DNA of 64,000 bases from assembly GCA_036560185.1 (NCBI GenBank), contig DATBRS010000247.1:6049-70048 (forward strand), in the 5' to 3' direction. The notes under the pieces are model-generated. The model was given only the letters and a program-made list of their open reading frames with translations. It was not told the origin of the DNA and ran no database searches. Position numbers and translations under genes: made by a program. This DNA comes from Myxococcota bacterium. Lineage in GTDB: Bacteria; Myxococcota_A; UBA9160; UBA6930. The first letter of the stretch is position 1; each line of letters starts with the position of its first letter. This document shows positions 21,551 through 56,393 of this stretch, piece by piece.

Positions 21551-21592
21551 CGCCTCTCCCCGAGCGCTTAGTATGCGCGCTGGGGAGGATGC

Positions 21593-40637: not shown

Positions 40638-41594
40638 TTAGGCGCGCGCGAAGCGCACGCTCTCCTCGGCGGTGATGGTGTAGGCGGCGTCGGCTTCGAT
40701 CGGGAACAGCTCGCCGTCCACGGTCACCTCGCAGCCGGCGCGCAGCGAGGCGCACGAGACTCGCGCGCTCGTGTAGCCGTGCTCCGGCGTCGCGAAGGCG
40801 GGGGCGCGGCCGCGCAGGATCTGCGGAATCGTGCGCGCCAGGCGCTCCGCGTTGCCTCGCACGAGCGTCGTGCGGATCGGCCCCTCGCCCGCTCCCCAAC
40901 AAGGCCGGAAGCCGAAGATCAGCCGCTCGAGCGTGGTGAACAGCGTGACCAGGCGCCGTTCATCGGGCAGCGGCTTGCCGTCGAACGCGAGCCCGATCTC
41001 GTCGGGATGCATCAGCGCGCCACGCGCGCCCGTGAGGATGTTGGCGACCAGCGTGCACGTGACGAGCGCGACGCCGATCGTCTCCTGCAGCCGCCCTTTC
41101 GGCAGATGGCGCGTGGTGAGCGACACGGCGCGCCCGAGCATGCCCGCCGCGGCGAACATGCCGCAGCGCACCTCACCGCTTCGCTGGCGCGCGACGCGCA
41201 ATACCGCGCGCGATGCGATGCGCGCCTCCAGCTTGCCCGCGCGCGCGTCCGCGACGATCTCGCGCAAGCCCTGCGCGCCGTCGCGCACGGCGCCGAGATC
41301 GGCCGCGGTCATGTTGGTTCGGCCGCCGCGAATCGGCGCGATCACCGGCAGCCAGCTCGGCCGGCCGGTCGCGAGCAGCGCGGTGAGGGCGCATTCGAGC
41401 GTGCCGTCGCCGCCGTTGACGATCAGTAGCTCGACGTCCGCGCGGCGCATCCGCTCGATCGCCTCGGGCACCGCGGCCGCCGAGGGCGTCGCGAAGTGCA
41501 TCACGTCGGGGGCACCCTCGACCTCGCGCAGGATGCGCTCGCCGAGGCGCTTGTTGCGGCCGGCGCGCAGGTTGTTGAGGAGGCCGATGCGCAA
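40638..41594 (-). CDS. Diacylglycerol-kinase catalytic-domain (DAGK_cat/LCB5/YegS-type) lipid kinase
   Basis: 318 aa. It has the signature LLIVNGGDGTLECAL and the pattern IAPIRGGRTNMTAADLG. TTG start. Confidence 0.75.
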   Translation of the reverse strand: MRIGLLNNLRAGRNKRLGERILREVEGAPDVMHFATPSAAAVPEAIERMRRADVELLIVNGGDGTLECALTALLATGRPSWLPVIAPIRGGRTNMTAADLGAVRDGAQGLREIVADARAGKLEARIASRAVLRVARQRSGEVRCGMFAAAGMLGRAVSLTTRHLPKGRLQETIGVALVTCTLVANILTGARGALMHPDEIGLAFDGKPLPDERRLVTLFTTLERLIFGFRPCWGAGEGPIRTTLVRGNAERLARTIPQILRGRAPAFATPEHGYTSARVSCASLRAGCEVTVDGELFPIEADAAYTITAEESVRFARA

Positions 41595-41633: not shown

Positions 41634-42581
41634 CTACTGGTAGAACGTGTAGCTCGCGATCGCCGTACCCTCGCGCCGCGCCGCCCGCGCGCCCTCGCGC
41701 ACGTCGATCGCGAACGGTGACGCCATCCACGCCGACCGCAAGCGCAGCCCGAGCACGAAGCGGATGGGCGCCGGCAGGTCGGCGAGCGGGTCGTAGCTGG
41801 CGAGCGGCGCGCCCGCGCTCAGCACGCCGGGCGCGAGCGGGCCCGCCAGCGCGAGCCGCGCGGCCGGAGCGTCGAGCTTCTCGTTCGGAACCTGCGTCGC
41901 ACTCTCTTGCGCGAGCAGCTTGCCGTGCGCGTCGAACGCGACGACCCAGCGCTCGGCGCGCTTTCCGTTCGCGACCTCGAGCACGTAGATCGGCGCGGCG
42001 CCGAGGGTGAAGGCCTCGAGGCGGCGCTGCGCGAGCTTGGACTCCGGCCCTTCGATCTTGCGCCGCGAGAGCGCGACGCGGCCCTTGCCGGCGAGCGGTG
42101 CCGCCATGCCGCGCTTCCAGAACGACGCATTCAGCGGAGCGCCGGCGGCCCATAATTCCTGCGTCCACTTTCCGCCGGCGAGCGTGTGGGTGGCGAGCGG
42201 CGCCGCCGCGAGCGGGAAATCGAGCGTCAGCTGCAGACTCTTCTTCTCGACGCGCAGCTGCGCGCGCGGCTGCGTGCGATCGAACACGAACTTGCCGAGG
42301 TCGATGCGCTTGCCGTCGGGGCTCGGCGTCCATGCGCCGCCGAGCTTCGCGCGCGAGAAGGGCGTGAGCGCGCCGTCCGGCGCGAGCCAGTTGCCGATCG
42401 CCGCTGCGTTGCGCTCGCCGGGCCCGATGTCGGTGAGCGTGAACTCGACGAACACTTGCTCGCCAGAATCGAGCCGCGCGGCGAGCAGCCACCATTCGGT
42501 CGGCGCCGCGTGCGCGGCGGCAGCCGCCGCAAGCCCGAGCCCACACGACCAGCGCAGCACGGCAGCGAGCATGCGGAACAC
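41634..42581 (-). CDS. Secreted protein of unknown function (possible AttH/CrtC-type lipocalin-like fold)
   Basis: Signal peptide MFRMLAAVLRWSCGLGLAAAAAAHA. The mature N-terminus APTEWWLLAARLDSGEQVFVEFTL recalls the EWWY motif of AttH-like lipocalin domains, which is weak evidence. It lies inside the lipid operon. Confidence 0.4.
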   Translation of the reverse strand: MFRMLAAVLRWSCGLGLAAAAAAHAAPTEWWLLAARLDSGEQVFVEFTLTDIGPGERNAAAIGNWLAPDGALTPFSRAKLGGAWTPSPDGKRIDLGKFVFDRTQPRAQLRVEKKSLQLTLDFPLAAAPLATHTLAGGKWTQELWAAGAPLNASFWKRGMAAPLAGKGRVALSRRKIEGPESKLAQRRLEAFTLGAAPIYVLEVANGKRAERWVVAFDAHGKLLAQESATQVPNEKLDAPAARLALAGPLAPGVLSAGAPLASYDPLADLPAPIRFVLGLRLRSAWMASPFAIDVREGARAARREGTAIASYTFYQ

Positions 42582-42587
42582 TCCCGG

Positions 42588-43754
42588 TCAGCGCTGCGAG
42601 GCCATCTGCGCGAGCGCGATCTCTTCCTCCCACGGGCGCAGCGTGCGGCCGGCCGCGCGCAGCGCGAGCGCGTGCGCGAGCCGCGCGACGTGGAACGCGA
42701 TCGAGAGGCCCGTCCACCAGGCCACCGCTTCGAAGCCGAGCGCCGGCGAGCCGGCGAGCGTGCAGAGCGTCAGCAGCACGAGGTTGGGATTGCGGCGCGC
42801 CGTAATCAGTCGAAAGAAGGAATCGAGCGGCCGCCACGAGTGCGTCTCGAATCCGCACGCGAGCATGAAGACGCCCTCGAGCAGACGGCCGGCGACGTAG
42901 CCGCCGATCACGACGAGCGCGGCCGGGGATTGGAGGCCCACGCCGATGCCGAGCGCCCACGCGGCCCACCAGACGGGTGGATGCGCGAGGTCGAGCCCGT
43001 GATCGAGCCAGTGCCCGATCGGCGACGAGCTCTGCGTGACGCGCGCGAGCTTGCCGTCGACCGTGTCGAGGAAGGTCATGCACCACGCGGCGCCGAGGCC
43101 GAGGCCGAACTCGCCGTGCGCGAACGCGAACGTCGCGTAGAGCACGAGCGCCCAGCTCATCAGCGTGACGACGTTCGGCGTGATGCCGAAGCGCGCGCAC
43201 GCTCTCACGACGCGGAACGCGAGCGGGGGCCACGCGTACTTCGTGATGAAATCCGTGACGCCCTTGTAGGACGCGTCGAACAGTGCCCGCTCGATCTCCG
43301 CCGCGTTCCCCGGCGTCGCGATGCGCAGCAGCGGAGGCGCGAGCTTGCGCAGCTCCGGCGTGTAGGCGGGCGCGAGCTGTTCGGCGCTGCGCACGGCGAC
43401 CCCGCCGAGCGGCGCACCGCCCGCGAGCCATGCCGCGGCTTCCGCGGCGCGCTCGCCCGCGACCACCGCGGCGGCCGGCCCCGCGCTCTCCGCGACCAGC
43501 GCGACGGGGTCGCCCGTGAGCAGCTGCTTCGCGATGCGCTCGTCGAGCACCGCGTCGCCGCGCACGAGCAGCACGAGCTCCCCGTCGCGAGCGGCTCCCG
43601 CACTCGCGCCGCCGGCGCTGACCTCGCCTGCGCCCGCGCGCGAGAAGGTCTGCGCGAGGCGCGCGTCGCTGCGCTGCGCGAACAGGACGGGGAGGGGCGC
43701 GCCGGAGGGCGCGAGCACGAACACGCGGCGCGCAGCGGCCTCGGCGCCGCTCAT
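42588..43754 (-). CDS. Fusion of a degenerate nucleotidyltransferase-like domain to a CDP-alcohol phosphotransferase (copy 1)
   Basis: ATG at 43754 (GAGGAG upstream). The C-terminal half carries the family motif DTVDGKLARVTQSSSPIGHWLDHGLD (D-G-x2-A-R...G-x3-D-x3-D) within multiple TM helices. The N-terminal ~190 aa are alpha/beta-like (VFVLAPSG...LVLLVRGDAVLDERI). It is a paralog of 45633..46931. Confidence 0.75.
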   Translation of the reverse strand: MSGAEAAARRVFVLAPSGAPLPVLFAQRSDARLAQTFSRAGAGEVSAGGASAGAARDGELVLLVRGDAVLDERIAKQLLTGDPVALVAESAGPAAAVVAGERAAEAAAWLAGGAPLGGVAVRSAEQLAPAYTPELRKLAPPLLRIATPGNAAEIERALFDASYKGVTDFITKYAWPPLAFRVVRACARFGITPNVVTLMSWALVLYATFAFAHGEFGLGLGAAWCMTFLDTVDGKLARVTQSSSPIGHWLDHGLDLAHPPVWWAAWALGIGVGLQSPAALVVIGGYVAGRLLEGVFMLACGFETHSWRPLDSFFRLITARRNPNLVLLTLCTLAGSPALGFEAVAWWTGLSIAFHVARLAHALALRAAGRTLRPWEEEIALAQMASQR

Positions 43755-43781
43755 TCGCTCCTCATCCGCGCGCAGCGTTGC

Positions 43782-44759
43782 GTGCCCATTCGCATCCTCG
43801 AGTCGGGCTCCCAGCGACCGGCGCGTATCATAGGCCGGTACGCTCTGGAGGTCGCCGCGCTGTTCCGGCTCGCCCACGTTTCCGATCTGCACGCTACGCG
43901 CGTGCGCTTCTCCGGCCTCGCTGAGCTGAACGCGAAGCGCGCGCTCGGCTGGCTCTCCTGGCAGGTGCGGCGGCGCCGCAAGTACCGGCCCGAGATCGCG
44001 GCGCGCGTGATCGACGATTTGGTCGCGAGCGCCCCCGATCACGTCGCGGTGACCGGCGATCTCACGCACATGGGCCTCGACGCGGAAGTCGCGGAAGCCG
44101 CGGCGTGGCTCGCGCGGCTCGGCCCGCCCGAGCGCGTGACGCTCGTCCCCGGAAATCACGACGCGTATGGCGCGCGGCTCGATCACGCCTGCATGGACGC
44201 ATGGCGCCCCTATTTAAATTCAGACCAGGGCGCGCGGGGCGCGACGCGAGCGGCGGCGCCCTTCCCCAGCCTGCGCGTTCGCGGTCCGGTGGCGCTCGTG
44301 GGCCTCAGCTCCGCCGTGCCCACGCCGGTGCACCTCGCGACCGGGCGCGTCGGCGAGGCGCAGCTCGCCGCGTTGCCCGACCTGCTGCGCGACCTCGCTG
44401 CGCGCAAGCTCTGCCGCGTCGTGCTCGTCCACCACCCGCCGACGCGCGCGCACGTCTCGTGGCGGCGGCGCCTCGAAGACGGCCCCGCGCTGTGCCGGAT
44501 CCTCGCGCGCGCCGGCGCCGAGCTGGTGCTGCACGGGCACACCCATCGCGCCGCGCGCGACGCGATCGCGAGCGCGCATGGGCCGATCCCGGTGCTCGGC
44601 GTGCCCGCGACGTCCTCCGCCGTGCGCGCTCGGCCGGGCGCTTATCAGGTGTTCTCGATCGCAGAGCGCGGCGCAGGCGGCTACGCGATCTCGCGCGAGC
44701 TGCGCGAGATCAGCGGCGTATCAGGCCCGCTGCGCTCGCTCGGCAGCGAATCGCTCTAG
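43782..44759 (+). CDS. Calcineurin-like metallophosphoesterase
   Basis: Motifs are HVSDLH, VTGDLTH, PGNHD, LVHHPP and VLHGHTH. The start is uncertain. GTG at 43782 is the first canonical start, but a CTG at 43860 sits 8 nt after a GGAGG and would give the typical N-terminus (M)FRLAHVSDLH. Confidence 0.75.
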   Translation: MPIRILESGSQRPARIIGRYALEVAALFRLAHVSDLHATRVRFSGLAELNAKRALGWLSWQVRRRRKYRPEIAARVIDDLVASAPDHVAVTGDLTHMGLDAEVAEAAAWLARLGPPERVTLVPGNHDAYGARLDHACMDAWRPYLNSDQGARGATRAAAPFPSLRVRGPVALVGLSSAVPTPVHLATGRVGEAQLAALPDLLRDLAARKLCRVVLVHHPPTRAHVSWRRRLEDGPALCRILARAGAELVLHGHTHRAARDAIASAHGPIPVLGVPATSSAVRARPGAYQVFSIAERGAGGYAISRELREISGVSGPLRSLGSESL

Positions 44760-44761
44760 GG

Positions 44762-45568
44762 CTAGGCCCCGCGTTTCAGCAGCCGCTCGACGAGCGCGAA
44801 ATCCTCGAGCTTGTCGACGTCGATGCCCGCGCGGCCGTCCGCGAGCCGCACGGCGCCGATGCGCGCGCCGCTGGCTCGCGAGATCGCCTCGAGCGCGGCC
44901 TCGAGGGGCAGGCGCCCGGCCATGAAGCGCGCGAGCGTGACCGCGCCGAACACCGCGGCGAGGCGCCAGGGCTCCTTGCGGAAGCCCTCGGCTCTGCGCC
45001 AGAACGCGGCGACGCGCGCGGCGCCGGGCGTGCGCGCCAGGAACAAGTTCGCGCCGGTGAAGCGCTCGCGGCCGAGCCGCAGCCAGGTTCGCTTGTTATG
45101 GGGAGCGACTGCGAGCACCGCCAGGTCGGGCACGAGCGCCACGCACAGGTCGTTCCCGCTCGCGAGCGCGTCGTCGAGGAATGCGCTGACCGTGGCGGCC
45201 GCGAGCAGCGGATGATCGGCGGTCGTCACCAGCACGAGCGCACTCGCGCTGCGCTCGACGAAATCGCGCACGCTGTCCGCGGGCGACGAGCCGCTCGCGT
45301 GCAGCGCGAGCTCGCCGGAGGCGAACGCGGGGCCGAACTCAGGATGGCGCCGCAGCGCCTCGGGGTCGTCGATGCTGATCGTGATCTGCCCGACCGCCGG
45401 CACGGCGCGCAGCGCCTCCAGCACGTACGAGAGCAGCGGCCGCCCATGCATCGGCGCCAGCGCCTTGTGCGTGACCCCCGCCGCGCGCGCGATCGGCTCC
45501 TCGCCGCCGCGCCGGCCGGCGAGCACGAGCGCAGCCACCGTCTCCGTTCGCTTCGGCTTCGTGAGCAC
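44762..45568 (-). CDS. MobA-like (NTP_transf_3) nucleotidyltransferase family protein
   Basis: 268 aa. The N-terminus AALVLAGRRGGEEPIARAAGVTHKALAPMHGRPLLSYVLEAL and the later LVTTADHPLL are typical of this fold. Confidence 0.65.
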   Translation of the reverse strand: MLTKPKRTETVAALVLAGRRGGEEPIARAAGVTHKALAPMHGRPLLSYVLEALRAVPAVGQITISIDDPEALRRHPEFGPAFASGELALHASGSSPADSVRDFVERSASALVLVTTADHPLLAAATVSAFLDDALASGNDLCVALVPDLAVLAVAPHNKRTWLRLGRERFTGANLFLARTPGAARVAAFWRRAEGFRKEPWRLAAVFGAVTLARFMAGRLPLEAALEAISRASGARIGAVRLADGRAGIDVDKLEDFALVERLLKRGA

Positions 45569-45632
45569 GCGCCGCGATTAGAGCACATCTGCCGGAGCCG
45601 GACGGCGCGCGGGCGCGCGCAGCGCCCACGAT

Positions 45633-46931
45633 ATGCTGCCGCGCGCTGCAGGGAGTGGCCGCGTGTCAGCGATTCGTTTCGCGATCTGGATCGACGCGAC
45701 TCCTCCCGAGAGCGCGCTGCGCGTCTTCGGCATGTCGCTCGTCGAGCGGCTGCTCGCCGCCGTCGCACAGCTCGCGGGTGCGAAGAACGCGCGCTTCGCG
45801 CTCGCGAGCGTCGTGGTGGAGCACGCGCCGGCGGCCGCGCCGCGGCTGCGTGCCGATCTCGCGGCGCGCCTCGGCGCGACGCTCGCCGAGGCGCGCGGCA
45901 CGCTTTCCGAGCGCATCGCGCGCGCCGCCGCGCGCGACGCGAACGCCGTGCTGCTCGCGCTGCCAGGCGACGCCATCGTCGACACGCGCGTGCTCGCCGA
46001 GTTGCTGCGCGAAGCGGATAGCGCGATCGCTCTCGCGGACGAGGGTGCACGACGCACGGCGCTGGTGCGCCTCGCGGCGAGCGCGGTGCCGGCGCCGGCG
46101 AGCGCGAACGATCTGCGCGGCCTCGCCGAGGCGCAGCGCGCCGCGGGCACAGCGCGCGTGCTCCCGCTCTCGGCGATTGCGGAGCACATCGCCGACCTGC
46201 GGCGCGATCAGCCGGCCTATGCGTTTCGGCTCGCCGCGAGCGAGGTCGCGTCCACCGAGCGCTGGCTGTTCTGGTCGAACTACAAGGGCTCGACCGACTT
46301 CCTGACGCGCTTCGTCTTCCCACCTTTCGTGTGGGCAGCGGTGCGCCCGCTCGCGCGCCTCGGCGTCCACCCGAATTGGGTGACGGGGCTGGCGGTGCTG
46401 CTGTGCTTCGGTGCGATCCCGCTCTGGGCGCATGGACATTGGGCGCTCGGCTTCGCGGCCGCCTACGGGATGGCGGTGCTCGATTCCGTCGACGGCAAGC
46501 TCGCGCGCCTCACCTTCACCGCCTCGACGCTCGGGAACGTGATGGACCACGGAACCGACATCCTGCATCCGCCGTTCTGGTACGCGGCGTGGGCGTGGGG
46601 TCTGGCCGGTGGACCTCACGGCCCGGTCTACGAGCTCACGCTCTGGATGTTCGGGCTGTACACGCTCGACCGGCTGGTCGCGCCGATCTTCCGCGCGATG
46701 ACGCAGAAGTCGATCCACGGCTACGCGCCGATCGACGTCGCGATGCGCACGTTCATCTCGCGGCGCAACGTCAACCTGCCGGTCTTCACCGTCGCGCTGC
46801 CGCTCGGGCTCGGCGCCGAGGCGATCGTGCTCGTGGTGGCGTGGCAGGCCGCGTGCTTCGTGTTCCACGCGGTGCGCTGCGCGCAGGTGGCGATCAGCCT
46901 CGAGCGCAGCGCGAGCCGGGCGACGCGGTGA
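45633..46931 (+). CDS. Fusion of a degenerate nucleotidyltransferase-like domain to a CDP-alcohol phosphotransferase (copy 2; IPCT/DIPPS-like architecture)
   Basis: Motif LDSVDGKLARLTFTASTLGNVMDHGTDILHPP within TM helices. The N-terminal domain resembles an NTase (ALPGDAIVDTRVLAELL), but the Gly-rich loop reads AIWIDATPPES. The junction ERWLFWSNYKGSTDFLTRFVFPPF matches copy 1 (ERALFDASYKGVTDFITKYAWPPL). An alternative GTG start at 45663 has a better GGGAG SD. Confidence 0.75.
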   Translation: MLPRAAGSGRVSAIRFAIWIDATPPESALRVFGMSLVERLLAAVAQLAGAKNARFALASVVVEHAPAAAPRLRADLAARLGATLAEARGTLSERIARAAARDANAVLLALPGDAIVDTRVLAELLREADSAIALADEGARRTALVRLAASAVPAPASANDLRGLAEAQRAAGTARVLPLSAIAEHIADLRRDQPAYAFRLAASEVASTERWLFWSNYKGSTDFLTRFVFPPFVWAAVRPLARLGVHPNWVTGLAVLLCFGAIPLWAHGHWALGFAAAYGMAVLDSVDGKLARLTFTASTLGNVMDHGTDILHPPFWYAAWAWGLAGGPHGPVYELTLWMFGLYTLDRLVAPIFRAMTQKSIHGYAPIDVAMRTFISRRNVNLPVFTVALPLGLGAEAIVLVVAWQAACFVFHAVRCAQVAISLERSASRATR

Positions 46932-47075: not shown

Positions 47076-48239
47076 GTGCGCGTCTGCTTCCTGTTCAACC
47101 ACTACGCCACGCACCAGCTGATGCACGCCGCGCCGTTCGCGTTCGAGCTCTCGCGCCGGCACGCGAAGGCGGAGGTGGTCGTCGCCTGCACGAGCGAGGA
47201 GCAGCTGCACGCGGCGCGGCGCATCGCGGAGCTCTATCCCGGCCAGCGCGCGGAGTTCGTGCGGCTGCGCATGTCGCTGCTCGACCGCGTCGCGGCGGCA
47301 GCGCTCGCAGGCTTCACCTTCCTCGCCAAGAAGCGAATGCTCGCCAGCAACCTCGACTTCTTCCGCGGCTTCGACGCCGTCGTCGCGCCCGAGCGCACGA
47401 TGCTGAAGCTGCGCACGAAGCACGGCCTGGCGCACGTGAAGCTGATCAACGCGCGGCACGGTCAGGGCGATCGCGAGGGCAGCTTCGACGCGCGCACGCG
47501 CGAGCTCGATCTCACCCTCGTGGGCGGCCGGAAGTACATCGAGCGCTTCGCCGAACACGAGATCCTGCGCGAGGGCCACACCGCGATCGTCGGCTACCCG
47601 AAGTTCGAGGTGTGCGACGCGCTGCCGGCGCCGCCGCGCTTCTTCGAAAACGACCGGCCGGTAGTCGTCTACAACCCGCACTTCGACGCGACGGAATCGT
47701 CCTGGCAGACCCAGGGCCGCGCGGTGCTCGCTTGGTTCGCAGCGCAGGCCGAGTACAACCTGATCTTCGCGCCGCACGTCGTGCTGTTCGCGCGCGCCTG
47801 GCGCCATCGCGCGCGCGTCCCGCGGCGAATTCGCGAGGCGCGCAACATCTTCGTGGACACCGGCAGCGAGGCGAGCGTCGACATGACCTACACGCGCGCC
47901 GCGGACATCTATCTCGGCGACGCGAGCAGCCAGGTCTACGAGTTCATCGCGAAGCCGCGGCCCTGCGTGTTCATCGACGCCCAGCGCGCGCGCGCGGCCG
48001 CGCCCGCGAAGTACGCGCACTGGCGCTTCGGGCCCGTGATCGAACGCGCCGATCAGCTGGGCGAAGCGCTCGCGCGTGCGCGGCGCGACTTCCCCGCGTA
48101 CCTCGCCGCGCAGCGCGATGCGTTCGCCTACACCTTCTCCACCGACGCAGCGCGCACCCCGGGACAGCGCGGCGCCGACGCGATCTACGAGTTCCTCGAG
48201 AAGGGCCGCATCGTGTCGGAGTGCTACCGCGCGGGCTGA
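47076..48239 (+). CDS. GT-B-fold transferase, TagB/TagF (CDP-glycerol glycerophosphotransferase)-like
   Basis: 387 aa. VVYNPHFD... and AADIYLGDASSQVYEFIAKPRPCVFID parallel the YAPT.../LITDYSSvxFDF blocks of the Glyphos_transf family. This is a tentative assignment. Confidence 0.4.
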   Translation: MRVCFLFNHYATHQLMHAAPFAFELSRRHAKAEVVVACTSEEQLHAARRIAELYPGQRAEFVRLRMSLLDRVAAAALAGFTFLAKKRMLASNLDFFRGFDAVVAPERTMLKLRTKHGLAHVKLINARHGQGDREGSFDARTRELDLTLVGGRKYIERFAEHEILREGHTAIVGYPKFEVCDALPAPPRFFENDRPVVVYNPHFDATESSWQTQGRAVLAWFAAQAEYNLIFAPHVVLFARAWRHRARVPRRIREARNIFVDTGSEASVDMTYTRAADIYLGDASSQVYEFIAKPRPCVFIDAQRARAAAPAKYAHWRFGPVIERADQLGEALARARRDFPAYLAAQRDAFAYTFSTDAARTPGQRGADAIYEFLEKGRIVSECYRAG

Positions 48240-49012
48240 CGCGCCGGCGCATCTTCGATCGGCGCGGCGCGGCTCTTGCGGCGGCTCTCGAAGAGCCGAT
48301 GCGCCCACTCGGCATCGCCCGCGACCAGGCGATTCGCCTCCGCGATGGCGCGCCGCAGGATCAGCATGCGACGGCGCCACAGCATGCGCGGCACGCTGCG
48401 CGTTGCAGTTGTGCGCGAGAAGCGCTCGTGCCGCAGCGCGCTGAGGCCCGAGGGCGGCAGCCCGAGGTAGGCCTCGACGCGCGCGAGCGAGCGCGCCGGC
48501 TCGGCGATCAGCTCGGAAGATTCGAGCACGAGCTTGTCGCCGTCATGCGCGCGCCAGCCCTCGGCGAAGCGGCGGAGCTCGTCGCTGAGCCCCGTCGCCC
48601 GGCCGCGCTGCTGCCAGCCGCGCTCCGAGAAGCAGAACGCGAACTCGTAGCTCTTGGTGGGCCACGCTCCGGTCTCCTCGCCGCGCCGGTAGGCGGAGAC
48701 GATCTCCTCGGCGTCTCGTAACAAGATCACCTTCGGCACGCGCTGCAGCACCGCTTGGTTCCGCGGCGTCGGCGGGAAGTGGAACTTCGCGAGCCGATCG
48801 CGCGCGGCCAGCACGCCCGCGACGCGCTCGTCGAGCTCGACGAAATCGCGGCGGTGGAACTGCGCGGCGTGCCAGTAGCCCGGCGCGATCGGGCGCCGGA
48901 GCAACACCTCGTCGCGGATGCGGCGCGTATCGACGGACAGGGCATGCGTTGCGGCCAACGTCTCGACGAGCGCGCTGCTCGCGCTCTTCGGGATGGCGAC
49001 GATCAGGCTCAC
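48224..49012 (-). CDS. Sulfotransferase-family protein (PAPS-dependent type)
   Basis: It has a 5'-PSB-like motif IVAIPKSASSAL, a 3'-PB-like motif KVILLRDAEEIVSAYRR, and a C-terminal block LESSELIAEPARSLARVEAYLGLP. The ATG overlaps the upstream NTase stop by 4 nt. Confidence 0.55.
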   Translation of the reverse strand: MSLIVAIPKSASSALVETLAATHALSVDTRRIRDEVLLRRPIAPGYWHAAQFHRRDFVELDERVAGVLAARDRLAKFHFPPTPRNQAVLQRVPKVILLRDAEEIVSAYRRGEETGAWPTKSYEFAFCFSERGWQQRGRATGLSDELRRFAEGWRAHDGDKLVLESSELIAEPARSLARVEAYLGLPPSGLSALRHERFSRTTATRSVPRMLWRRRMLILRRAIAEANRLVAGDAEWAHRLFESRRKSRAAPIEDAPARQPAR

Positions 49013-49779
49013 GCGCCGGGCTCCACCGAGCGCGGCGACTCGCGCGCTCGCGCGCGCGCCGCGAGCCCTTTGCGCACCGCCTCGAGGTCATCGAGCGAAT
49101 CGATCTCTCCCCACCACAGGCCTTCCATCGAGCACGCGCGCACGAGCCCGTGGCGCGCGAGCTCGCCGATCGCGGTGGTGTAGTAGGCGCGCTGCTGGCC
49201 GTAGCGGCGCACGAGCTGCTCGAAGCTCTCGCGGATCGCGACCGCTCCCGAGCCGCGCAGCAGCGTCATGCCGATCGCCTCGCCTTGGCTCTCCGGCGGT
49301 TCGAGATCCTTGCCGATCGCCCTCACCAGCCCGCGCTCCAGGCACACCTTCATGTCGTCGTCGTCGTAGCTCGGCTTCACGTTGACCACGATCGTGACGG
49401 GGCTCGGCGGCGCGGCGAAGAGCCGCTCGACGACCGCGCCCTCGAACAGCGTGTCGCCGTTCAGGAGCACGCACTCGCCGTCGAAATCGCGGCTCGCGAG
49501 CCAGGCCGTGATCAGGTTGTCGGCCTGATCGAAGAACGGGTTGTATCGGACCCGCAGTGCGAGGCCGGGCACCGGCGCAGCGGCCGCGAAGCGCTCGACC
49601 TTCTCGATGCCGTAGCCCGCCATCACCACGGCTTCGCGCACACCGTGGGCCGCGAGCTCGCGCAGCTGCACCTCGAGCACCGAGCGGTCGCCGTCGACGG
49701 GCACGAGGCACTTCGGCAGATCCCGCGTCACGGGGAACAGGCGCCGGCCTTGCCCCGCGCTCAGGATGATGGCTCGCAC
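49009..49779 (-). CDS. NTP_transferase-family nucleotidyltransferase (LicC / phospho-alcohol cytidylyltransferase-like)
   Basis: GTG at 49779 with a GGAGAG SD. It has the Gly-rich loop RAIILSAGQGRRLFPVTRDLPKCLVPV, LLNGDTLF, and WGEIDSLDDLE at the C-terminus. Confidence 0.75.
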   Translation of the reverse strand: MRAIILSAGQGRRLFPVTRDLPKCLVPVDGDRSVLEVQLRELAAHGVREAVVMAGYGIEKVERFAAAAPVPGLALRVRYNPFFDQADNLITAWLASRDFDGECVLLNGDTLFEGAVVERLFAAPPSPVTIVVNVKPSYDDDDMKVCLERGLVRAIGKDLEPPESQGEAIGMTLLRGSGAVAIRESFEQLVRRYGQQRAYYTTAIGELARHGLVRACSMEGLWWGEIDSLDDLEAVRKGLAARARARESPRSVEPGA

Positions 49780-49877: not shown

Positions 49878-52136
49878 GTGGCGGCTGGAAGCGAATCGAA
49901 AGGCGAGGCGGCGCGAGCCGCGAGAGCGCTCACCAGCGGGCATCGGCCGCTGGGCTGGACGCTGTTCGGCTATATCGCCCGCGAAGCGGTGCTGCCCAGC
50001 CTGCTCGCGCTCGGCGGCCTCTCGCTCGCGGCGCTCACGAAGAGCCTGCTCGGCCTCTCCGATCTGCTCGTGAACCGCGGCCTCAGCGGCGCCGACACGG
50101 CGGCGTTCGTCGGTTTCGAGATCGTGGTGCTCGCCGCGCGCATCCTGCCGTTCGCGGTGCTGCTCGGCGCGCTGATCGCGCTCGGGCGCCTCGCCGCAGA
50201 CAAGGAGCTGCTCGCGCTCGAGAGCTGCGGCATCTCGCCGGGCCGCCTGATCGGGCCGGTGTTGGCGGTCGGCTGCCTCGGCACGTTGGGCGGGCTCGCG
50301 CTCTCGCTGCAGCTCGTGCCGGCGACGCTCGCCGCGCGCGAGCAGCTGCTGATCCGCAGCACGCTCGAGCAGCCGGGATCGGTGCTGCACCCTGGCGTGG
50401 TCCAGAAGTTCAAGGAGCGGCGCCTCTCGGCGCTCGACGCGTCGAGCCGCGGCGACGACCTGCGCGGCGTGATGCTCCACGCCGAGGATCTCGACGAGAC
50501 CTTCTTCTCGGAGACCGCGACGCTGCGCGTGCCGCAGCCGGGCACGATCGTCGTGACGATGCGCGACGGCATGATCGTCACGAACGCCGGCAAGCGCGCG
50601 CAGCTCGTGCGCTTCAAGCTGTTCCGCATCGAGCTCGAGGGCAAGGAATCGGTCGGCAAGCCACAGGGCGACGAAGGCCGCTTCGCCAGCACGCCCACGC
50701 GCGAGCTCTGGTCGGCCGTGCCGCAGAACGCGGAGGACGAGCGCGCGATTCGCAGCGAGCTCGCGCGGCGTTTCTCGATGCCGTTCGCCGCGCTCGCGCT
50801 GACCTGGCTCGCGGTGCCGCTCGCGCTGACCCTCGGCAGCGGCACGCGCGGCGGCGGCGGCGTGGTCGGCCTCGGCGTGACGGTCGTGTACTACGGCCTG
50901 CTGCAGGCGTCGAACGGCTTGCTCGAGTTCCCCGACGTGCCGGTCGCGCTGGCTGCGTGGTTTCCCAACCTCGCGGCGGCGATCGGCGGCGGCGTGCTGA
51001 TGATTCGCCGCTTCGTGCTGCTGCGCGAGCAGCAGCCGCGAGCGCGCGCCGCCGACGCGCGCGACGTGAAGTCGCAGCGCGCGCGGGGCGGCCGGCGCTG
51101 GGCGCTCACACGCTACGTCGCGCGCCGCTATCTCGGGAGCGCGCTGCTCGGCATCGGCGTGCTGCTGCTCGCGTATCTGCTCGTCGACGTGCTGGAGAAG
51201 CTCGAGCAGTTCGCCGAGCACGGCGCCGCGTTCTCCGAGGTGCTGCGCTTCTACGCCGCGCGGCTGCCGCTGCTCGTCTCGCGCGTATTGCCGATGGGCC
51301 TGCTCGTCGCCGCCGCAATGATCGTCAGCGCGATGTCGAGCGAGGGCGAGCTCGTCGGCATGGAGGCCTGCGGCATCCGCGCCGGGCGCGGGCTGGTGCC
51401 CGTGATCGTGCTCGCCGCCCTCGCGATGCCGCCGTATTTCGCGCTGCTCGACCGCGTGCTGCCGACGACCAATGCGCTCGCCGACCGCCTGAAGGAACGC
51501 GAGATCAAGGACCGGGCGCCGGACGGCTGGGAAGAAGTCTGGTCGCACACGGCGCGGATGGCGCTGCACGTCGGCGCGCTGAACGCCGCAGCGGGCATGG
51601 CGCGCGACCTCACGCTCTACGAGCTCGGCCCGACCGGCCTGCCGGAGCGGCGGCTCGACGCGCGCGTCGCGAGCGCGCTCGGCCACGGCGAGTGGCGGCT
51701 GACCGACGCGAAGCTGACGCTGATCTCGCGCGCGGGTCTGATCGAGGCGCCGGCCGGCGAGACGCGCGCCATCCCCGAGATCGAGTCGTCGCTCAGCGAC
51801 CCGATGCACCTCGACATCGCCGACTTGGAGAAGCACATCCGCGAGGCGAAGCAGGGCGGCTACAGCTCGATGGCGTACGAGGTCGACTTGCAGTCCCGCT
51901 TGTCGCAGCCGCTCCAGTGCCTGCTGCTGCCGTGGCTCGGCCTGCTGATCGCGCTCGGTGTGCGCAAGCCGGCCCCGAGTCTGCTCTGGGCGATCGCGAT
52001 CGGCGTCGGCTTCATCCTCGTGACGGGAGTGAGCGTTGCCCTCGGCTACGGCGGCACGATTCCGCCGATCGCGGCGGGCTGGCTGCCCTCGGGGGCCGTC
52101 GGGCTGGCGGCATTTGTGCTGCAGCTTCGCCGCTGA
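49878..52136 (+). CDS. LptF/LptG (YjgP/YjgQ) permease family, both halves fused in one 752-aa polypeptide
   Basis: The first half reads FGYIAREAVLPSLLALGGLSLAALT...ILPFAVLLGALIALGRLAADKELLALESCGISPGRL. The second half restarts at about aa 400 with LTRYVARRYLGSALLGIGVLLLAYLLVD...VLPMGLLVAAAMIVSAMSSEGELVGMEACGIRAGR. There is no stop between them. Confidence 0.8.
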   Translation: MAAGSESKGEAARAARALTSGHRPLGWTLFGYIAREAVLPSLLALGGLSLAALTKSLLGLSDLLVNRGLSGADTAAFVGFEIVVLAARILPFAVLLGALIALGRLAADKELLALESCGISPGRLIGPVLAVGCLGTLGGLALSLQLVPATLAAREQLLIRSTLEQPGSVLHPGVVQKFKERRLSALDASSRGDDLRGVMLHAEDLDETFFSETATLRVPQPGTIVVTMRDGMIVTNAGKRAQLVRFKLFRIELEGKESVGKPQGDEGRFASTPTRELWSAVPQNAEDERAIRSELARRFSMPFAALALTWLAVPLALTLGSGTRGGGGVVGLGVTVVYYGLLQASNGLLEFPDVPVALAAWFPNLAAAIGGGVLMIRRFVLLREQQPRARAADARDVKSQRARGGRRWALTRYVARRYLGSALLGIGVLLLAYLLVDVLEKLEQFAEHGAAFSEVLRFYAARLPLLVSRVLPMGLLVAAAMIVSAMSSEGELVGMEACGIRAGRGLVPVIVLAALAMPPYFALLDRVLPTTNALADRLKEREIKDRAPDGWEEVWSHTARMALHVGALNAAAGMARDLTLYELGPTGLPERRLDARVASALGHGEWRLTDAKLTLISRAGLIEAPAGETRAIPEIESSLSDPMHLDIADLEKHIREAKQGGYSSMAYEVDLQSRLSQPLQCLLLPWLGLLIALGVRKPAPSLLWAIAIGVGFILVTGVSVALGYGGTIPPIAAGWLPSGAVGLAAFVLQLRR

Positions 52137-52214: not shown

Positions 52215-53021
52215 ATGTTCGGCCGCCGTTCGGACGGAACGCTCGTCCGCAATCTGCCGAAGCTGCGGCGGTTCATGCCGTTCGTGTCACCGCGACGCAA
52301 CGAGTCGGCGTTCTACTACTCCCACGAGATCGAAGTCGACGCCGCCCTGCGCTTCCTCGAGGAGCAGAACAAGACGCGGCCCCCGGGCAGGCAAATCACG
52401 CTGTTCCACCTGTACTTGCGAGCGGTGGCGCTCGGCCTGCGCGACAACGAGGAGGTGAACCGCTTCACCGCGGGCGGCCGTCTGTACCAGCGAAACGGAG
52501 TCTTCCTGACCTTCAGCGCCCTGCGCGAGCTGCAGAAGGGCTCCCATCTGATCACCGTGAAGCGCGCCTTCCCGGCGGGCGAGACGCTTCCCGGAATGGT
52601 AGACCGCGTGCTCGACTCGCTGGTGAGCCGGCGCAGCGGGACCAAGACCCAAGCCGACAAGGAGGTCGACCTCGCGCTCTACCTGCCAACGCCGCTGATT
52701 CGCGGCGTGATGAAGCTTCTCCGCTGGGCGGATTCGCTCGGCGTTTTGCCCAAGTCGATGATCGACGACGACCCGCTGTTCACCTCGTTGTTCGTGGCGA
52801 ACCTCGGATCGCTGGGCATGGAGTCCGGTTACCACCACCTGTGGGAATACGGCACATGCTCGGGCTTCTGCGTCATGGGACGCATCCGAACGCGGCCGGA
52901 CGGCAGCCGCTACGTCGTTTGTAATTACACCTGGGACGAAAGGGTTGCCGACGGCCTCGCCACGAGCTTCGCGCTCGGCGGCTGGAAGGAGCGCGTCGAG
53001 AACCCGGAGAAACTCATCTGA
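52215..53021 (+). CDS. 2-oxoacid-dehydrogenase E2 catalytic-domain-like (CAT-fold) acyltransferase-like protein; no lipoyl domain, canonical His replaced
   Basis: ATG at 52215 with a GGGAGAC SD. The C-terminal block NYTWDERVADGLATSFALGGWKERVENPEKLI matches the E2 signature sfDHRviDGaxaaxFlxxlkxxlExPxxLl, except that DHR reads DER. The stop overlaps the spt N-terminal coding region. Confidence 0.6.
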   Translation: MFGRRSDGTLVRNLPKLRRFMPFVSPRRNESAFYYSHEIEVDAALRFLEEQNKTRPPGRQITLFHLYLRAVALGLRDNEEVNRFTAGGRLYQRNGVFLTFSALRELQKGSHLITVKRAFPAGETLPGMVDRVLDSLVSRRSGTKTQADKEVDLALYLPTPLIRGVMKLLRWADSLGVLPKSMIDDDPLFTSLFVANLGSLGMESGYHHLWEYGTCSGFCVMGRIRTRPDGSRYVVCNYTWDERVADGLATSFALGGWKERVENPEKLI

Positions 53022-53056: not shown

Positions 53057-54205
53057 GTGAGAACCCTGCGAGACCATGCGATCTACCCGTACTACCGGGT
53101 CGTCTCGTCGGGCCAAGACCCGGTCGTCCTCATGAACGGACGCCCAGTCGTGATGCTGGGCTCGAACAACTACCTCGGGCTATCGAGCCATCCCGAGGTG
53201 AAGGCCGCCGCCGCCGCGGCGCTCGACAAATACGGGACCGGCTGCGCCGGGTCGCGGCTGCTGAACGGCACCCTCGACATCCACGTGGAGCTCGAGGATC
53301 GCCTCGCGCGCTTCATGCGGCGCGAGGCCGTGATCACGTTCGCGACCGGCTATCAGGCGAACGTCGGCGCGCTCTCGACGCTGCTCGGGCGGCACGACGA
53401 GGTGTTCCTCGACAACCTCGATCACGCCTCCCTGCTCGACGGCATCCGGCTCGGCTTCGCGAAGGACCGCAAGTTCCGGCACAACGACATCGCGGACCTC
53501 GAGAAGAAGCTGAGCGCGGCGCCGAAGGACTCGGGCAAGCTGATCGTCGTCGACGGCGTCTACTCGATGGAAGGAGACCTCGGCGACCTGCCCGGAGTGT
53601 GCGCCGCGGCCAAGAAGTACGGCGCGCGCGTGATGGTCGACGAGGCCCACGGCATCGGCGTGATGGGCACGAACGGCCGCGGCGCGTGCGAGCACTTCGG
53701 CGTCGAGTCCTCCGTCGACCTCGTGATGGGGACCTTCTCGAAGTCGCTGGCGTCCGTCGGCGGGTTCATCGCGGGGAGCCGCTTGGTGGTCGACTACATC
53801 AAGCACACCGCGCGCTCGGCGATCTTCTCCGCCGCGCCCGCTCCGCCGGTGATCGGCGCGGTGATCAAGGCGCTCGACATCCTCGAGCGCGAGCCGGAGC
53901 GGCGCAAAGCGCTCTGGGAGAACACCGACTACATGAACCGCGCGCTGACGTCGCTGGGCTTCGACATCGGCAAGCCTCAGTCGCCGGTGATCCCGATCAT
54001 GATCGGGCCCGACGAGATCGCGTACGAGATGGCGGTGCGGCTGCAGGACGAGGGCGTGTTCGCGAACCCCGTCGTGTCGCCGGCGGTGCCCCAAGGCAAC
54101 GCGATGATCCGCACCTCGTACATGGCGACGCACACGCGCGAGCACCTCGACACCGCGCTCGATGCGCTCGCCAGCGTCGGCCGTCAGCTCGGCGTGATTC
54201 GCTAG
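53057..54205 (+). CDS. spt: Serine palmitoyltransferase-like alpha-oxoamine synthase (PLP-dependent)
   Basis: It contains GTGCAGSRLLNGT (an SPT-type loop), RKFRHND, VDGVYSMEGD, VDEAHGIG, and the PLP-lysine block GTFSKSLASVGGF. Overall it is collinear with Sphingomonas SPT as I recall it. The conserved N-terminal segment TDLFDKVASYDR lies upstream of the first canonical start, so the true start may be CTG at 53018. Confidence 0.8.
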   Translation: MRTLRDHAIYPYYRVVSSGQDPVVLMNGRPVVMLGSNNYLGLSSHPEVKAAAAAALDKYGTGCAGSRLLNGTLDIHVELEDRLARFMRREAVITFATGYQANVGALSTLLGRHDEVFLDNLDHASLLDGIRLGFAKDRKFRHNDIADLEKKLSAAPKDSGKLIVVDGVYSMEGDLGDLPGVCAAAKKYGARVMVDEAHGIGVMGTNGRGACEHFGVESSVDLVMGTFSKSLASVGGFIAGSRLVVDYIKHTARSAIFSAAPAPPVIGAVIKALDILEREPERRKALWENTDYMNRALTSLGFDIGKPQSPVIPIMIGPDEIAYEMAVRLQDEGVFANPVVSPAVPQGNAMIRTSYMATHTREHLDTALDALASVGRQLGVIR

Positions 54206-54283: not shown

Positions 54284-55084
54284 GTGAGCGCGCGCGCCGT
54301 CCTCGTCACGGGCGCGTCGTCAGGCATCGGCGCCGCGGCGGCGGCGTTGCTCGCCGCGCGCGGCTTCCGCGTCTACGGCGCGAGCCGGAGCGCGCGCAGC
54401 GAGCGCGACGGCATGCGCTGGCTCGCGCTCGACGTGCGCGAGCCCGCCTCGGTAGAGCGCGCCGTCGCTCAGATCGTCGAGCGCGAGGGCGCGCTGTACG
54501 GCGCGGTCTGCAACGCCGGCATCGGCATCTTCGGCAGCGTCGAAGAGACGCCGATGGAGCGCGCCCGCGCGCAGTTCGAGACGAACGTCTTCGGCGTGCT
54601 GCACACGCTGCGCGCGGTGCTGCCGCCGATGCGCACGGCGCGCGCCGGCCGCATCGCGATCGTCGGCTCGCTCGCCGGCCGCGCGCCGATTCCGTTTCAG
54701 GCGCACTACTCCGCAACCAAGGGCGCCGTCGACGCGCTCGCTCTCTCGCTGCACAACGAGGTGCATGCGTTCGGCATCCACGTCGCGCTGATCGAGCCGG
54801 GCGACATCAACACGGGCTTCAACGACGCCACCGATTGGGGCGGCACCGCCGCGGCGAGCGCCTACGGCGCGGCAATCGTGAACGCGGAGCGCGTGATCCG
54901 CGAGTCGCTGCCGAGAGCGCCCGGGCCCGAAGTCGTGGCGCGCGCGATCGCGCACGCGCTCGAGGCTCGGCGGCCGCGCGTGCGCTACCCGGTCGGGCCC
55001 GATTCGAAGCTCGTGCCGCTCGGCAAGCGTCTGCTTCCCGAGCGCGCGGTGCTCGCGTTGATCCGCGACCACTTCGAGATGTGA
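54284..55084 (+). CDS. Classical SDR oxidoreductase (candidate 3-keto-sphingoid reductase by context)
   Basis: GTG start. It has TGASSGIG, NAG, and YSATKGAVDAL (YxxxK). It lies immediately downstream of the spt-like gene. Confidence 0.8.
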   Translation: MSARAVLVTGASSGIGAAAAALLAARGFRVYGASRSARSERDGMRWLALDVREPASVERAVAQIVEREGALYGAVCNAGIGIFGSVEETPMERARAQFETNVFGVLHTLRAVLPPMRTARAGRIAIVGSLAGRAPIPFQAHYSATKGAVDALALSLHNEVHAFGIHVALIEPGDINTGFNDATDWGGTAAASAYGAAIVNAERVIRESLPRAPGPEVVARAIAHALEARRPRVRYPVGPDSKLVPLGKRLLPERAVLALIRDHFEM

Positions 55085-55103: not shown

Positions 55104-56393
55104 TCACGCCTCGCGGCGCAGGATCTTCTGCTTCTGCTGCTCGGTGAAGCGCAGCAGCCGCGCCATGTACTCGAGGCGCGCGTAATCCCGTCCCACGTGA
55201 TGGATCGTGTCGAAGGGATCGTCCTCGCCGAGCATCTCGCCGAGGCGCGGCGAGTTCCGGTGCAGCAGCTGCGGATCGACGCGCTTCGGCTCGAGGCTGC
55301 GCAGGATCCCGCGGTTGAAGTGCCAGTGCAGCGTCACGCGATCGCCGGGCTCGCTGCGATCGCCCTGCCAGTGCCAGAGGCCGTGCGTGAAGAACACGAC
55401 CGAGCCTTTGGGCATCTCGATCGGAACGCCGGGCGGATGCGCCTCGCCGGGCCGTGGCGAGCGCCGCAGGCGATGGCTGCCGGGAATCACCCAAGTCGGG
55501 CCGGACTCGACGCGCCAATCCTCGAGGGCCCACACGCCGACTCCCGTCAGCGCGAACTCCGGATGCGGCTCGGGCACGAGCGCGTAGTCGGTGTGGATCG
55601 GGATCGCGGTCTTGCCGGGGCCCTTGCGAATCGCGCTGAGCGAGCCGATCACGGCGCCGCGGCCGAGCGAGGCGTCGATCAGCGTGAGCAGCAGCGGGTG
55701 CTGCGCGAGCCGCTCGAACTCGCGGCCGTGGTAGAGCATCCACTGCAGCTGCGTTCCCGTTCCCCCTAATTGCTGGCTGCGATCGCTGCCGTGGGTGAGC
55801 AGCGCGCGCAGCGTCGCCGCCCGCAGCTCGTCCGCGAACTCGGGCGAGATCGCGCGCTCGAGCACCGCGTAGCCCTGCTCCTCCATGTCGCGAATCTTCT
55901 GCGCCACGCCCTGGCGCGCGGCGCGGTGCGCCAGATCGGGGTTCTCGACGGTGCGCCGCGCCATGTGGTCGTGCAGCATCGCGACCAGCTCGGCCGCTTG
56001 CGGGTCCGCGAATTGGCCGCGCGCGCGAACCGCGCCGGCGCCGAAGATCGCCGCGATCTCGCGCATCAGTGCGTCCATTGCGCCCGGCGCGAACACTCCC
56101 ACGAACTGCGCGGCCGTGAGCGCGGCCTGATAGTCGCCTTCGACCACGACGTCCGCGCGCTCGTCGAAGCCGCGCCGCAGCTCGATCTTCTCGCCGTCGT
56201 AGCGCGCGCTCCACGCGGCGACGTCGCCCGCCAGCTTCAAGTGCGGCGGCGCGTCGGTGAAGCGCTCGCTCAGCGAGAACGCGCGGCCCGCGAGCCGCTC
56301 CCTACGCGCCGCGACCTCGCGCACCAAGAACTCGCGCGCCTCCTCGAGCCAGGCGTCGGAGAGGAACTCGCAGTGATGCGGGAGCGTGATCAC
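55104..56393 (-). CDS. Phytanoyl-CoA dioxygenase (PhyH)-family Fe(II)/2-oxoglutarate oxygenase with an N-terminal SCP2-like domain
   Basis: GTG at 56393 with an AGGAAGGG SD. The C-terminal part reads IPIHTDY...WVIPGSHRL...GSVVFFTHGLWHWQG (the HxD...H facial triad pattern). The N-terminal ~150 aa (ADVVVEGDYQAALTAAQF...) look SCP2-like, tentatively. Confidence 0.7.
   Translation of the reverse strand: MITLPHHCEFLSDAWLEEAREFLVREVAARRERLAGRAFSLSERFTDAPPHLKLAGDVAAWSARYDGEKIELRRGFDERADVVVEGDYQAALTAAQFVGVFAPGAMDALMREIAAIFGAGAVRARGQFADPQAAELVAMLHDHMARRTVENPDLAHRAARQGVAQKIRDMEEQGYAVLERAISPEFADELRAATLRALLTHGSDRSQQLGGTGTQLQWMLYHGREFERLAQHPLLLTLIDASLGRGAVIGSLSAIRKGPGKTAIPIHTDYALVPEPHPEFALTGVGVWALEDWRVESGPTWVIPGSHRLRRSPRPGEAHPPGVPIEMPKGSVVFFTHGLWHWQGDRSEPGDRVTLHWHFNRGILRSLEPKRVDPQLLHRNSPRLGEMLGEDDPFDTIHHVGRDYARLEYMARLLRFTEQQKQKILRREA

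Follow-up and report, generated by a model that had tools for sequence, protein, structure and literature searches.

A single-chain LptF-LptG permease gene followed by ceramide-type genes in a Myxococcota clade

Introduction

This report concerns lptFG, a lipid permease gene in a 64,000-nucleotide stretch of DNA from a Myxococcota bacterium (assembly GCA_036560185.1, contig DATBRS010000247.1), which is referred to throughout as the window. The gene encodes counterparts of LptF and LptG, two subunits of the LptB2FGC extractor of lipopolysaccharide (LPS), as a single polypeptide, and it is followed on the same strand by genes of the kind involved in ceramide synthesis, among them one for a serine palmitoyltransferase (Spt, encoded by spt). 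No published natural LptF-LptG fusion was found in a search of the literature, and neither the large family of natural fusions described below nor a Myxococcota clade in which the fused gene heads ceramide genes was found in the literature searched. That Lpt homologues of a sphingolipid locus can export the product of that locus with the housekeeping ATPase is already known from Caulobacter and is no longer an open question.

The fused gene and its product

The lptFG reading frame occupies positions 49878-52136 of the plus strand and runs for 752 codons without interruption from a GTG start, which fits homologues with N-termini reading MAGSESK or MVAGSESK. Its coding status is reflected in a GC content at third codon positions (GC3) of 0.93, in a window of 71% GC. 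The 752-residue product matches the Pfam family PF03739 (LptF_LptG) over two stretches (E=8e-110; 367.6 bits against a cutoff of 27.9). The NCBIfam models TIGR04407 (LptF) and TIGR04408 (LptG) fall on its N- and C-terminal parts, the latter covering residues 410-751 with 260.4 bits, above its cutoff of 240. Solved structures in the PDB give the same division: residues 29-370 align nearly end to end with LptF chains, which are the best PDB matches of the N-terminal half, and residues 410-751 align nearly end to end with LptG chains.

Three parts can be delimited in the polypeptide. An LptF-like half (residues ~29-377; 49962-51008), comprising a transmembrane (TM) bundle and a beta-jellyroll at residues 176-254, is joined to an LptG-like half (residues ~410-752; 51105-52133), with its own TM bundle and a beta-jellyroll at residues 551-631, by a basic linker (residues ~378-409; 51009-51104) that is predicted to be disordered, lies outside both family-model matches and is presumably cytoplasmic. 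An AlphaFold2 model built on 24 homologues (mean predicted local distance difference test score, pLDDT, 79.8; predicted template modelling score, pTM, 0.73) contains two helical bundles and, at the same two positions, two beta-sandwich inserts flanked by long helices; pLDDT is below 50 for linker residues 385-404. In Foldseek, the model matches best the LptG and LptF chains from structures of LptB2FG(C), the top target TM-scores reaching 0.81 (~0.8 per chain); across the LptF and LptG chains, target TM-scores are 0.63-0.85 and identities 14-22%. A preliminary description of this DNA had recognized a single uninterrupted reading frame with two complete LptF/LptG halves, and Pfam, NCBIfam, the PDB and the structural model all bear this out: each half is a complete subunit of the LptF/LptG type.

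The LptB ATPase is engaged by coupling-helix glutamates, which in Escherichia coli are LptF E84 and LptG E88. The glutamate of the LptF half, in 'AADKELLALESCG', aligns with that of E. coli LptF, in 'YTESEITVMHACG', and that of the LptG half, in 'SSEGELVGMEACG', is aligned to 'AQRSELVVMQASG' of E. coli LptG; both are present in 14 of 14 fused proteins aligned with LptF and LptG of E. coli K-12. The retention of these glutamates in both halves suggests that the protein needs an LptB-type ATPase and, with no ABC ATPase in the window, supports the earlier proposal that one would be borrowed from elsewhere. Lysine K34 of E. coli LptG contacts the lipid A phosphate. At the equivalent position of the fused protein, residue 437 (nucleotides ~51186-51188), every one of the 24 fused proteins in the alignment has aspartate, regardless of the genes around it. 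Cavity residues were considered as a means of discriminating LPS-type from sphingolipid-type members and proved uninformative; members linked to spt and members linked to KdsA have the same invariant residues, among them the Asp in place of K34.

Ceramide-type genes downstream of lptFG

Three genes follow lptFG on the same strand after gaps of 78 nt (an acyltransferase-like gene), 35 nt (spt) and 78 nt (a short-chain dehydrogenase/reductase, SDR, gene). The 78-nt gap before the first of these, at 52215, carries a ribosome-binding site (GGGAGA), and a search within it revealed nothing resembling a terminator. Given the placement of the ceramide genes beside lptFG, the exporter and lipid synthesis are probably co-transcribed, and lptFG and the ceramide genes apparently form one transcription unit.

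The acyltransferase-like protein (52215-53021, plus strand) has 268 amino acids and is a candidate ceramide N-acyltransferase, with a faint match to PF00198 and no NCBIfam match; every member of the window's clade has an ortholog (76-83% identity) immediately 3′ of lptFG. The next gene (53057-54205, plus strand) encodes a serine palmitoyltransferase of a Bacteroidota-like type. Its best NCBIfam model is NF047600 (SerpalmtaseCFB; 534.5 bits, below the cutoff of 640), and in the PDB the Sphingobacterium enzyme 3A2B (4e-129; 434 bits) ranks ahead of KBL (~1e-86; 294 bits). Homologues of this Spt have 393-395 amino acids against 382 counted from the GTG at 53057, and the true start is possibly ~13 codons upstream; the homologous start position (53018) is CTG, not a standard start codon, and the start is uncertain. 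The SDR (54284-55084, plus strand; adh_short, 1e-39) resembles 3-ketodihydrosphingosine (KDS) reductases, and the corresponding model NF049977 (KdsR) is the third best SDR model, at 209 bits against a cutoff of 400.

The upstream head-group module

Divergent from lptFG lies a nucleotidyltransferase (NTase) gene (49009-49779, minus strand; PF00483, PF12804). Its start is more likely the GTG at 49779 than 49857, which leaves a divergent intergenic region of 98 nt. The NTase is possibly a cytidylyltransferase of the CpgD/IMPCT type; its matches in NCBIfam and the PDB are weak and non-specific (IPCT/DIPPS, MurU, RmlA, LicC and IMPCT), and a CpgD-like function would be an analogy with Caulobacter. 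On the same strand is a sulfotransferase-like gene (48224-49012; PF00685, E=2.4e-4, just below the gathering score), whose only ortholog among the fetched loci, 71% identical, is in L006 (loci carrying relatives are cited by such numbers). The following gene, on the plus strand (47076-48239; PF04464, 1.8e-6), encodes a TagF-like CDP-glycerol glycerophosphotransferase that is specific to the window, with an ortholog in no fetched locus. Since the TagF-like gene occurs in the window only and L006 alone shares the sulfotransferase, head-group chemistry appears to vary among close relatives. In L001, the gene for CDP-alcohol phosphatidyltransferase B directly adjoins that for the NTase.

In the window, this transferase B (45633-46931, plus strand; PF01066, 3.7e-8) is accompanied by a MobA-like/CTP_transf_3 cytidylyltransferase (44762-45577, minus strand; PF12804, 2.9e-14; PF02348, 7e-8), a metallophosphoesterase (43845-44759, plus strand; its L001 ortholog matches PF00149, as does the cluster representative at 3e-11) and CDP-alcohol phosphatidyltransferase A of a CpgA-like class (42588-43874, minus strand, start approximate; PF01066, 1.4e-9; the L001 ortholog has 428 amino acids). 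A lipid kinase of the DAGK_cat family, similar in kind to CpgB and ceramide kinases (40638-41594, minus strand; PF00781, 1.5e-6, with weak matches to lipid-kinase models of NCBIfam), is encoded between two domain-less proteins (39668-40633 and 41634-42581); a PDB search for CpgB relatives gave no match for the kinase. A fatty-acid desaturase family gene at the edge of the lipid locus (38342-39655, plus strand; PF00487, 2.8e-24; conserved in L001 and L009) and a PhyH-family dioxygenase gene (55104-56393, minus strand; 100% identical to a PF05721 gene of L086), a candidate lipid hydroxylase, bracket the locus and are plausible tailoring enzymes for acyl chains or long-chain bases.

Genes for Spt, the KDS-reductase-like SDR, the ceramide-kinase-like kinase, CDP-alcohol transferases and cytidylyltransferases thus all lie within 12 kb of lptFG, and together with the Spt match to 3A2B they support the earlier view that the fused gene forms part of a locus of the sphingolipid type. 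The positional statements of the preliminary description were likewise correct: lptFG is transcribed in the same direction as, and 78 nt upstream of, the acyltransferase-like, spt and SDR genes, it is divergent from the NTase-sulfotransferase pair, and no LptB or LptC gene is nearby. Among the 42 window reading frames scanned with Pfam there was no match to the LptB, LptC, LptA or Lpx families and no MMPL or Mla gene, and a scan for Walker A and LSGGQ motifs found no ABC-ATPase signature in the whole 64-kb window.

Distribution of the fusion

The window protein is 100% identical to a protein recorded at NCBI from a Myxococcota MAG (metagenome-assembled genome). One genome per GTDB species was scanned with a single peptide pattern taken from the LptG half, and at least 347 of these genomes encode relatives of the fused protein. 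The best 80 of the 347 matches all cover essentially the whole query and come from Candidatus Binatia and from uncultured Myxococcota or 'Deltaproteobacteria' MAGs; among the sources are ~15 closed Binatia chromosomes, each contributing a single copy. Relatives of the window protein fall into 26 further 90%-identity clusters at 64-85% identity, below which identity falls to 36-42%, a range in which lengths of ~750 amino acids persist in more than 90 clusters. A search of 1.8 billion representative proteins recovered further fused LptF-LptG families of 760-900 amino acids at 23-30% identity (P0301-P0387), implying that the fusion occurs in further phyla; P0301 comes from Candidatus Schekmanbacteria. 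Unfused proteins of LptG size first appear in that search at E ~1e-31, and the nearest named unfused LptG sequences belong to Thermodesulfobacteriota and 'Deltaproteobacteria' MAGs, with no link to contigs of the fused family.

As judged from these comparisons, the fusion is an old, widespread and lineage-wide architecture and not a peculiarity of this locus. The preliminary description had seen in a fused paralog within a sphingolipid-type cluster a good candidate for a dedicated extractor; that the fusion is a specialisation of such a paralog is at odds with its presence in at least 347 species genomes and with the LPS-type context outside the window's clade, and the fusion is no hallmark of a dedicated sphingolipid transporter. 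An assembly or frameshift artefact as the origin of the fusion is excluded, because homologues of ~750 amino acids are encoded on hundreds of independent contigs.

Gene context across fused-lptFG loci

Genes were called in 85 loci and clustered, the clusters were named with Pfam, and a neighbour-joining (NJ) tree of the fused proteins was divided into four groups. Group 1 is the window's clade (L001, L002, L005-L010, L086 and L087). Here the acyltransferase-like and spt genes, in part followed by the SDR gene, come directly after lptFG wherever the downstream sequence suffices. The order LptFG-acyltransferase-Spt-SDR, with same-strand gaps of 35-110 nt, is kept in every relative at 64-85% identity that has enough flanking sequence.

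The other groups keep different company. In group 2 (Binatia), the order is MsbA-like exporter, Elm1-like glycosyltransferase, histidine phosphatase, 2-oxoglutarate oxygenase, SDR, acyl-CoA dehydrogenase, a protein of unknown function, a glycosyltransferase of family GT2 or GT4, the divergent NTase and LptFG. In group 3 (Myxococcota), LptFG is preceded by a sulfotransferase and followed by Elm1-like genes. Group 4 (Myxococcota) has MsbA-like, Elm1-like, KdsA (PF00793, 2e-64; 287 amino acids) and NTase genes before LptFG, often preceded by an unk321-DAGK-unk315-CDP-OH-cytidylyltransferase module that is the same as the window's, and two of its loci (L035 and L049) carry a KDS-reductase-like SDR 59-63% identical to that of the window. 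In a sister Myxococcota subclade, both modules surround one LptFG in the order unk321-DAGK-CDPOH-NTP3-MsbA-Elm1-KdsA-NTase-LptFG.

Ortholog clusters of the Elm1-like protein, the NTase and the MsbA-like exporter are represented at 49, 44 and 31 loci, respectively. An Elm1-like protein is needed for synthesis or assembly of the lipooligosaccharide core in Acinetobacter (PMC10936431), and the KdsA, MsbA-like, Elm1-like and GT2/GT4 neighbours indicate that the usual company of the family is LPS-type. The NTase had been described as merely a divergent neighbour; it is in fact the most conserved partner of the fused gene, with orthologs in Binatia and Myxococcota at 40-49% identity (L003, L004, L011-L056 and others). 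This common divergent neighbour supports orthology of the window gene with the genes in LPS contexts.

Outside the clade, the nearest Spt orthologues (67-69% identity, on MAG contigs of 0.2-2.4 Mb) do not adjoin lptFG, which on comparative grounds makes the lptFG-spt linkage a derived feature of the window's clade, stably kept down to 64% LptFG identity. Linkage of fused lptFG to spt holds within that clade and fails elsewhere: spt was found within 10 kb at 0 of 76 loci of groups 2-4. Among the best 120 of 8000 Spt homologue candidates, none could be placed on a closed Binatia chromosome with a fused gene.

Copy number

The window's clade is represented by six GTDB genomes among the best 80 of the 347 matches; each of the six has one locus there, and none showed a second fused copy. 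A second copy of the type seen in groups 2-4 (~35-41% identity) would carry the pattern used in the scan and would fall within the listed range. Moreover, no unfused LptF/G-like reading frame lies within 10 kb of the fused gene at any locus, the partial matches there being frameshifted or truncated pieces of the fused gene. Most of these findings count against the dedicated extractor that had been proposed initially: the fusion is the normal state of the lineage and no second fused copy was seen among these matches. The exception is the linkage to spt, which holds in the immediate clade.

Comparison with known systems

In Caulobacter, LptC2, LptF2 and LptG2 were named and proposed for sphingolipid export in 2024 (PMC11324152). 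In April 2026 they were reported to be required for sphingolipid transport, to be deletable only if spt or cpgB is absent, and to form a complex that binds the sole LptB (bioRxiv 10.64898/2026.04.12.717747). These two studies overtake the initial premise that sphingolipid export to the outer membrane was an unsolved problem. According to the same preprint, there is only one lptFG in Myxococci and in Bacteroidetes, and this copy possibly moves both lipids, a question the preprint leaves open; it also notes that Sphingomonas keeps Lpt genes without LPS (bioRxiv 10.64898/2026.04.12.717747).

Compared with the LptB2FGC extractor (E. coli, Pseudomonas, Vibrio and Acinetobacter; 5X5Y, 6MHU, 6MIT, 6MJP, 8FRL), the window protein belongs to the same PF03739 family in both halves, has the same fold in each half (a 6-helix bundle with a beta-jellyroll between TM3 and TM4) in the order F then G, and keeps the LptB-docking coupling-helix glutamate in both. 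It differs in being one chain with a ~30-residue basic linker where the extractor has two proteins, and in the family's invariant Asp where E. coli LptG has K34. Its gene also differs in having no lptB or lptC nearby and ceramide genes downstream.

The likeness to Caulobacter LptF2 (CCNA_01214) and LptG2 (CCNA_01213) is one of gene content. Their locus, too, holds spt along with genes for a ceramide kinase, a CDP-alcohol transferase and a cytidylyltransferase, likewise without a dedicated ATPase, and their proposed role is extraction of an anionic phosphosphingolipid. However, the Caulobacter proteins are two polypeptides and demonstrated second copies beside a canonical LptFG, whereas the window has a fused gene from a lineage-wide family whose usual context is LPS-type, with no second copy detected among the best 80 of the 347 matches. 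In the Caulobacter ceramide-phosphoglycerate pathway, CpgB is a ceramide kinase of the LCB5/DAGK type, CpgA is a PgsA-like CDP-alcohol transferase, CpgC is a domain-less protein and CpgD is a cytidylyltransferase (PMC9393093, PMC12275187). The head-group gene set of the window mirrors cpgA-D (PMC9393093, PMC12275187), and its kinase and two domain-less proteins parallel the cpgA-B-C arrangement (PMC9393093). Caulobacter cpgD (CCNA_01210) lies three genes from lptG2, which may be compared with the position of the window's NTase divergent from lptFG.

Two other arrangements are relevant. Sphingomonas wittichii has lptFG homologues next to spt as sole copies in an LPS-less organism, and thus resembles the window in having a single LptFG set by sphingolipid genes; its genes are unfused, whereas the window's are fused. 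The Spt-MlaA-MlaC-MMPL arrangement (L088-L090 and M. xanthus) carries the same phylum label as the window, but spt is linked there to Mla/MMPL genes and in the window to fused LptFG.

A model for lipid export and its alternatives

The reading that we favour, to which we give about an even chance, is that the fused gene is the lineage's ordinary and probably only LptFG, that the ceramide operon is an acquired neighbour, and that the protein carries both an anionic phosphosphingolipid and LPS by means of an LptB encoded elsewhere. A related formulation, in which a ceramide operon recruited a single ancestral one-chain LptFG that extracts an anionic phosphosphingolipid, either together with LPS or in its place, is held a little more tentatively, at somewhat short of even confidence. 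The architecture, family, coupling glutamates and synteny, and the single fused copy in related genomes among the best 80 of the 347 matches, are observed; from them we infer the LptB partnership, the co-transcription and the substrate or substrates.

Under the favoured reading, the protein would be an ancestral single-chain LptF/LptG heterodimer whose halves, joined through the cytoplasmic basic linker, would form a transmembrane cavity and two periplasmic beta-jellyrolls. Each half would dock, through its coupling helix, one subunit of an LptB dimer encoded elsewhere, and ATP-driven closure of the cavity would push a lipid of the outer leaflet onto the bridge of LptC and LptA. Ceramide genes would, in the window's clade, have been placed directly downstream of lptFG, with a Cpg-like phospho-head-group module upstream. 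The same exporter, and not a dedicated second copy, would then be co-expressed with the ceramide genes and carry the phosphosphingolipid as well as LPS.

Several points weigh against this reading. The LptF assignment of residues 29-375 by TIGR04407, at 224.6 bits, is marginally below the cutoff of 230. The window's clade sits on a long branch of the NJ tree, at ~40% identity to all other members, and has lost the adjacent KdsA-Elm1-MsbA genes; these two features would also fit a change of substrate. The copy-number evidence consists of one LptG-half pattern, the best 80 of 347 matches and the 10-kb flanks, and an additional unfused lptF/lptG pair elsewhere in the clade's genomes is possible. 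Among the 80 loci, just one genome, the MAG SP3084 (PBFW01), contributes two fused lptFG genes, which shows that paralogy occurs in the family. Of these, L065 has the usual context, and L057 (7282-10760), a divergent copy on a long branch, immediately follows a DAGK-like lipid kinase gene, with three P-loop kinase-like genes and a Wzx-like flippase gene downstream; the L057 copy may be a real dedicated paralog or bin contamination. Finally, the closest Spt orthologues outside the clade adjoin MlaA and MlaC in 3 of 3 loci (L088, 4983-11182; L089, 3971-11182; L090, 8156-11188) and also an MMPL transporter in two of these (L088 and L089), which suggests a different route of sphingolipid transport within the Myxococcota. 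An MmpL gene next to spt has likewise been noted in M. xanthus, in agreement with L088 and L089 (bioRxiv 10.64898/2026.04.12.717747).

It is on these Mla and MMPL associations that one alternative is built, namely that the adjacency has no meaning for transport, LptFG serving LPS only and the sphingolipid taking another route such as an MMPL or Mla system encoded elsewhere. The spt neighbourhoods of three other Myxococcota MAGs and of M. xanthus (bioRxiv 10.64898/2026.04.12.717747) speak for it, and the confinement of the lptFG-spt linkage to one clade (0 of the 76 loci outside it, within 10 kb) is in its favour. It accounts less well for the same-strand, short-gap order LptFG-acyltransferase-Spt-SDR that is kept down to 64% LptFG identity, for the linkage of Cpg-type head-group genes to fused LptFG in a second subclade too, and for the window's having no MMPL or Mla gene, and we consider it unlikely.

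Distinctly unlikely, in our judgement, is the view that the fused protein is a paralog dedicated to sphingolipid extraction, sharing LptB with a canonical LptF/LptG for LPS encoded in the same genome. The location in an Spt/KDS-reductase/Cpg-like locus with linkage conserved in the clade, the experimental precedent from Caulobacter (PMC11324152; bioRxiv 10.64898/2026.04.12.717747), the long branch of the clade, and the MAG in which one of two fused copies (L057) is next to a DAGK-like kinase gene all suit such a paralog. Against it stands the orthology, through the NTase, to genes in KdsA/MsbA/Elm1 contexts of Binatia and other Myxococcota. Nor do the searches reveal the expected partner: the six related GTDB genomes have no second fused copy (best 80 of 347), no locus has an unfused LptF/G-like reading frame within 10 kb, and none of the nearest named unfused LptG sequences, from Thermodesulfobacteriota and 'Deltaproteobacteria' MAGs, is linked to the clade.

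The sole LptFG of a lineage that, like Sphingomonas, has lost LPS and exports only an anionic sphingolipid replacing it in the outer leaflet is improbable, for although KdsA, MsbA-like and Elm1-like genes are absent from the neighbourhood and the whole 64-kb window, the clade lies on a long branch and Sphingomonas retains Lpt genes without LPS (bioRxiv 10.64898/2026.04.12.717747), absence from 64 kb is of little weight in a genome several megabases long, and the sister subclade has both modules together.

Until now, the export of sphingolipids to the bacterial outer membrane has been linked with duplicated LptF2/LptG2 of Alpha- and Gammaproteobacteria. The conserved operon-like arrangement with spt makes the present locus a genomic argument for co-option of a single Lpt permease. 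If the recruitment of a single LptFG into a ceramide operon is true, it would represent an independent, non-proteobacterial coupling of Lpt and sphingolipid export without gene duplication, in contrast with the Mla/MMPL-linked spt of other Myxococcota. The fused family is also potentially useful for structural work on a single-chain LptFG of fixed stoichiometry and for tracing the evolution of the heterodimer.

Sulfotransferases and unrelated genes

Sulfotransferase genes also flank fused lptFG in L004 (2617-3558) and, as cluster c13, in 17 clade-B loci (e.g. L059 and L072); in the c13 clade, a gene resembling inositol-monophosphatases and PAP-phosphatases is often near the sulfotransferase gene. 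That sulfotransferases recur beside the fused gene in several clades hints at an envelope lipid or glycan that is sulfated. Three genes without relation to the lipid locus lie upstream of it in the window, namely those for an alkyl sulfatase and an arylsulfotransferase-like protein (16608-18917 and 20009-21646, both minus strand) and for a full-length protein of the indoleamine 2,3-dioxygenase family (23375-24667, plus strand; E=7e-97).

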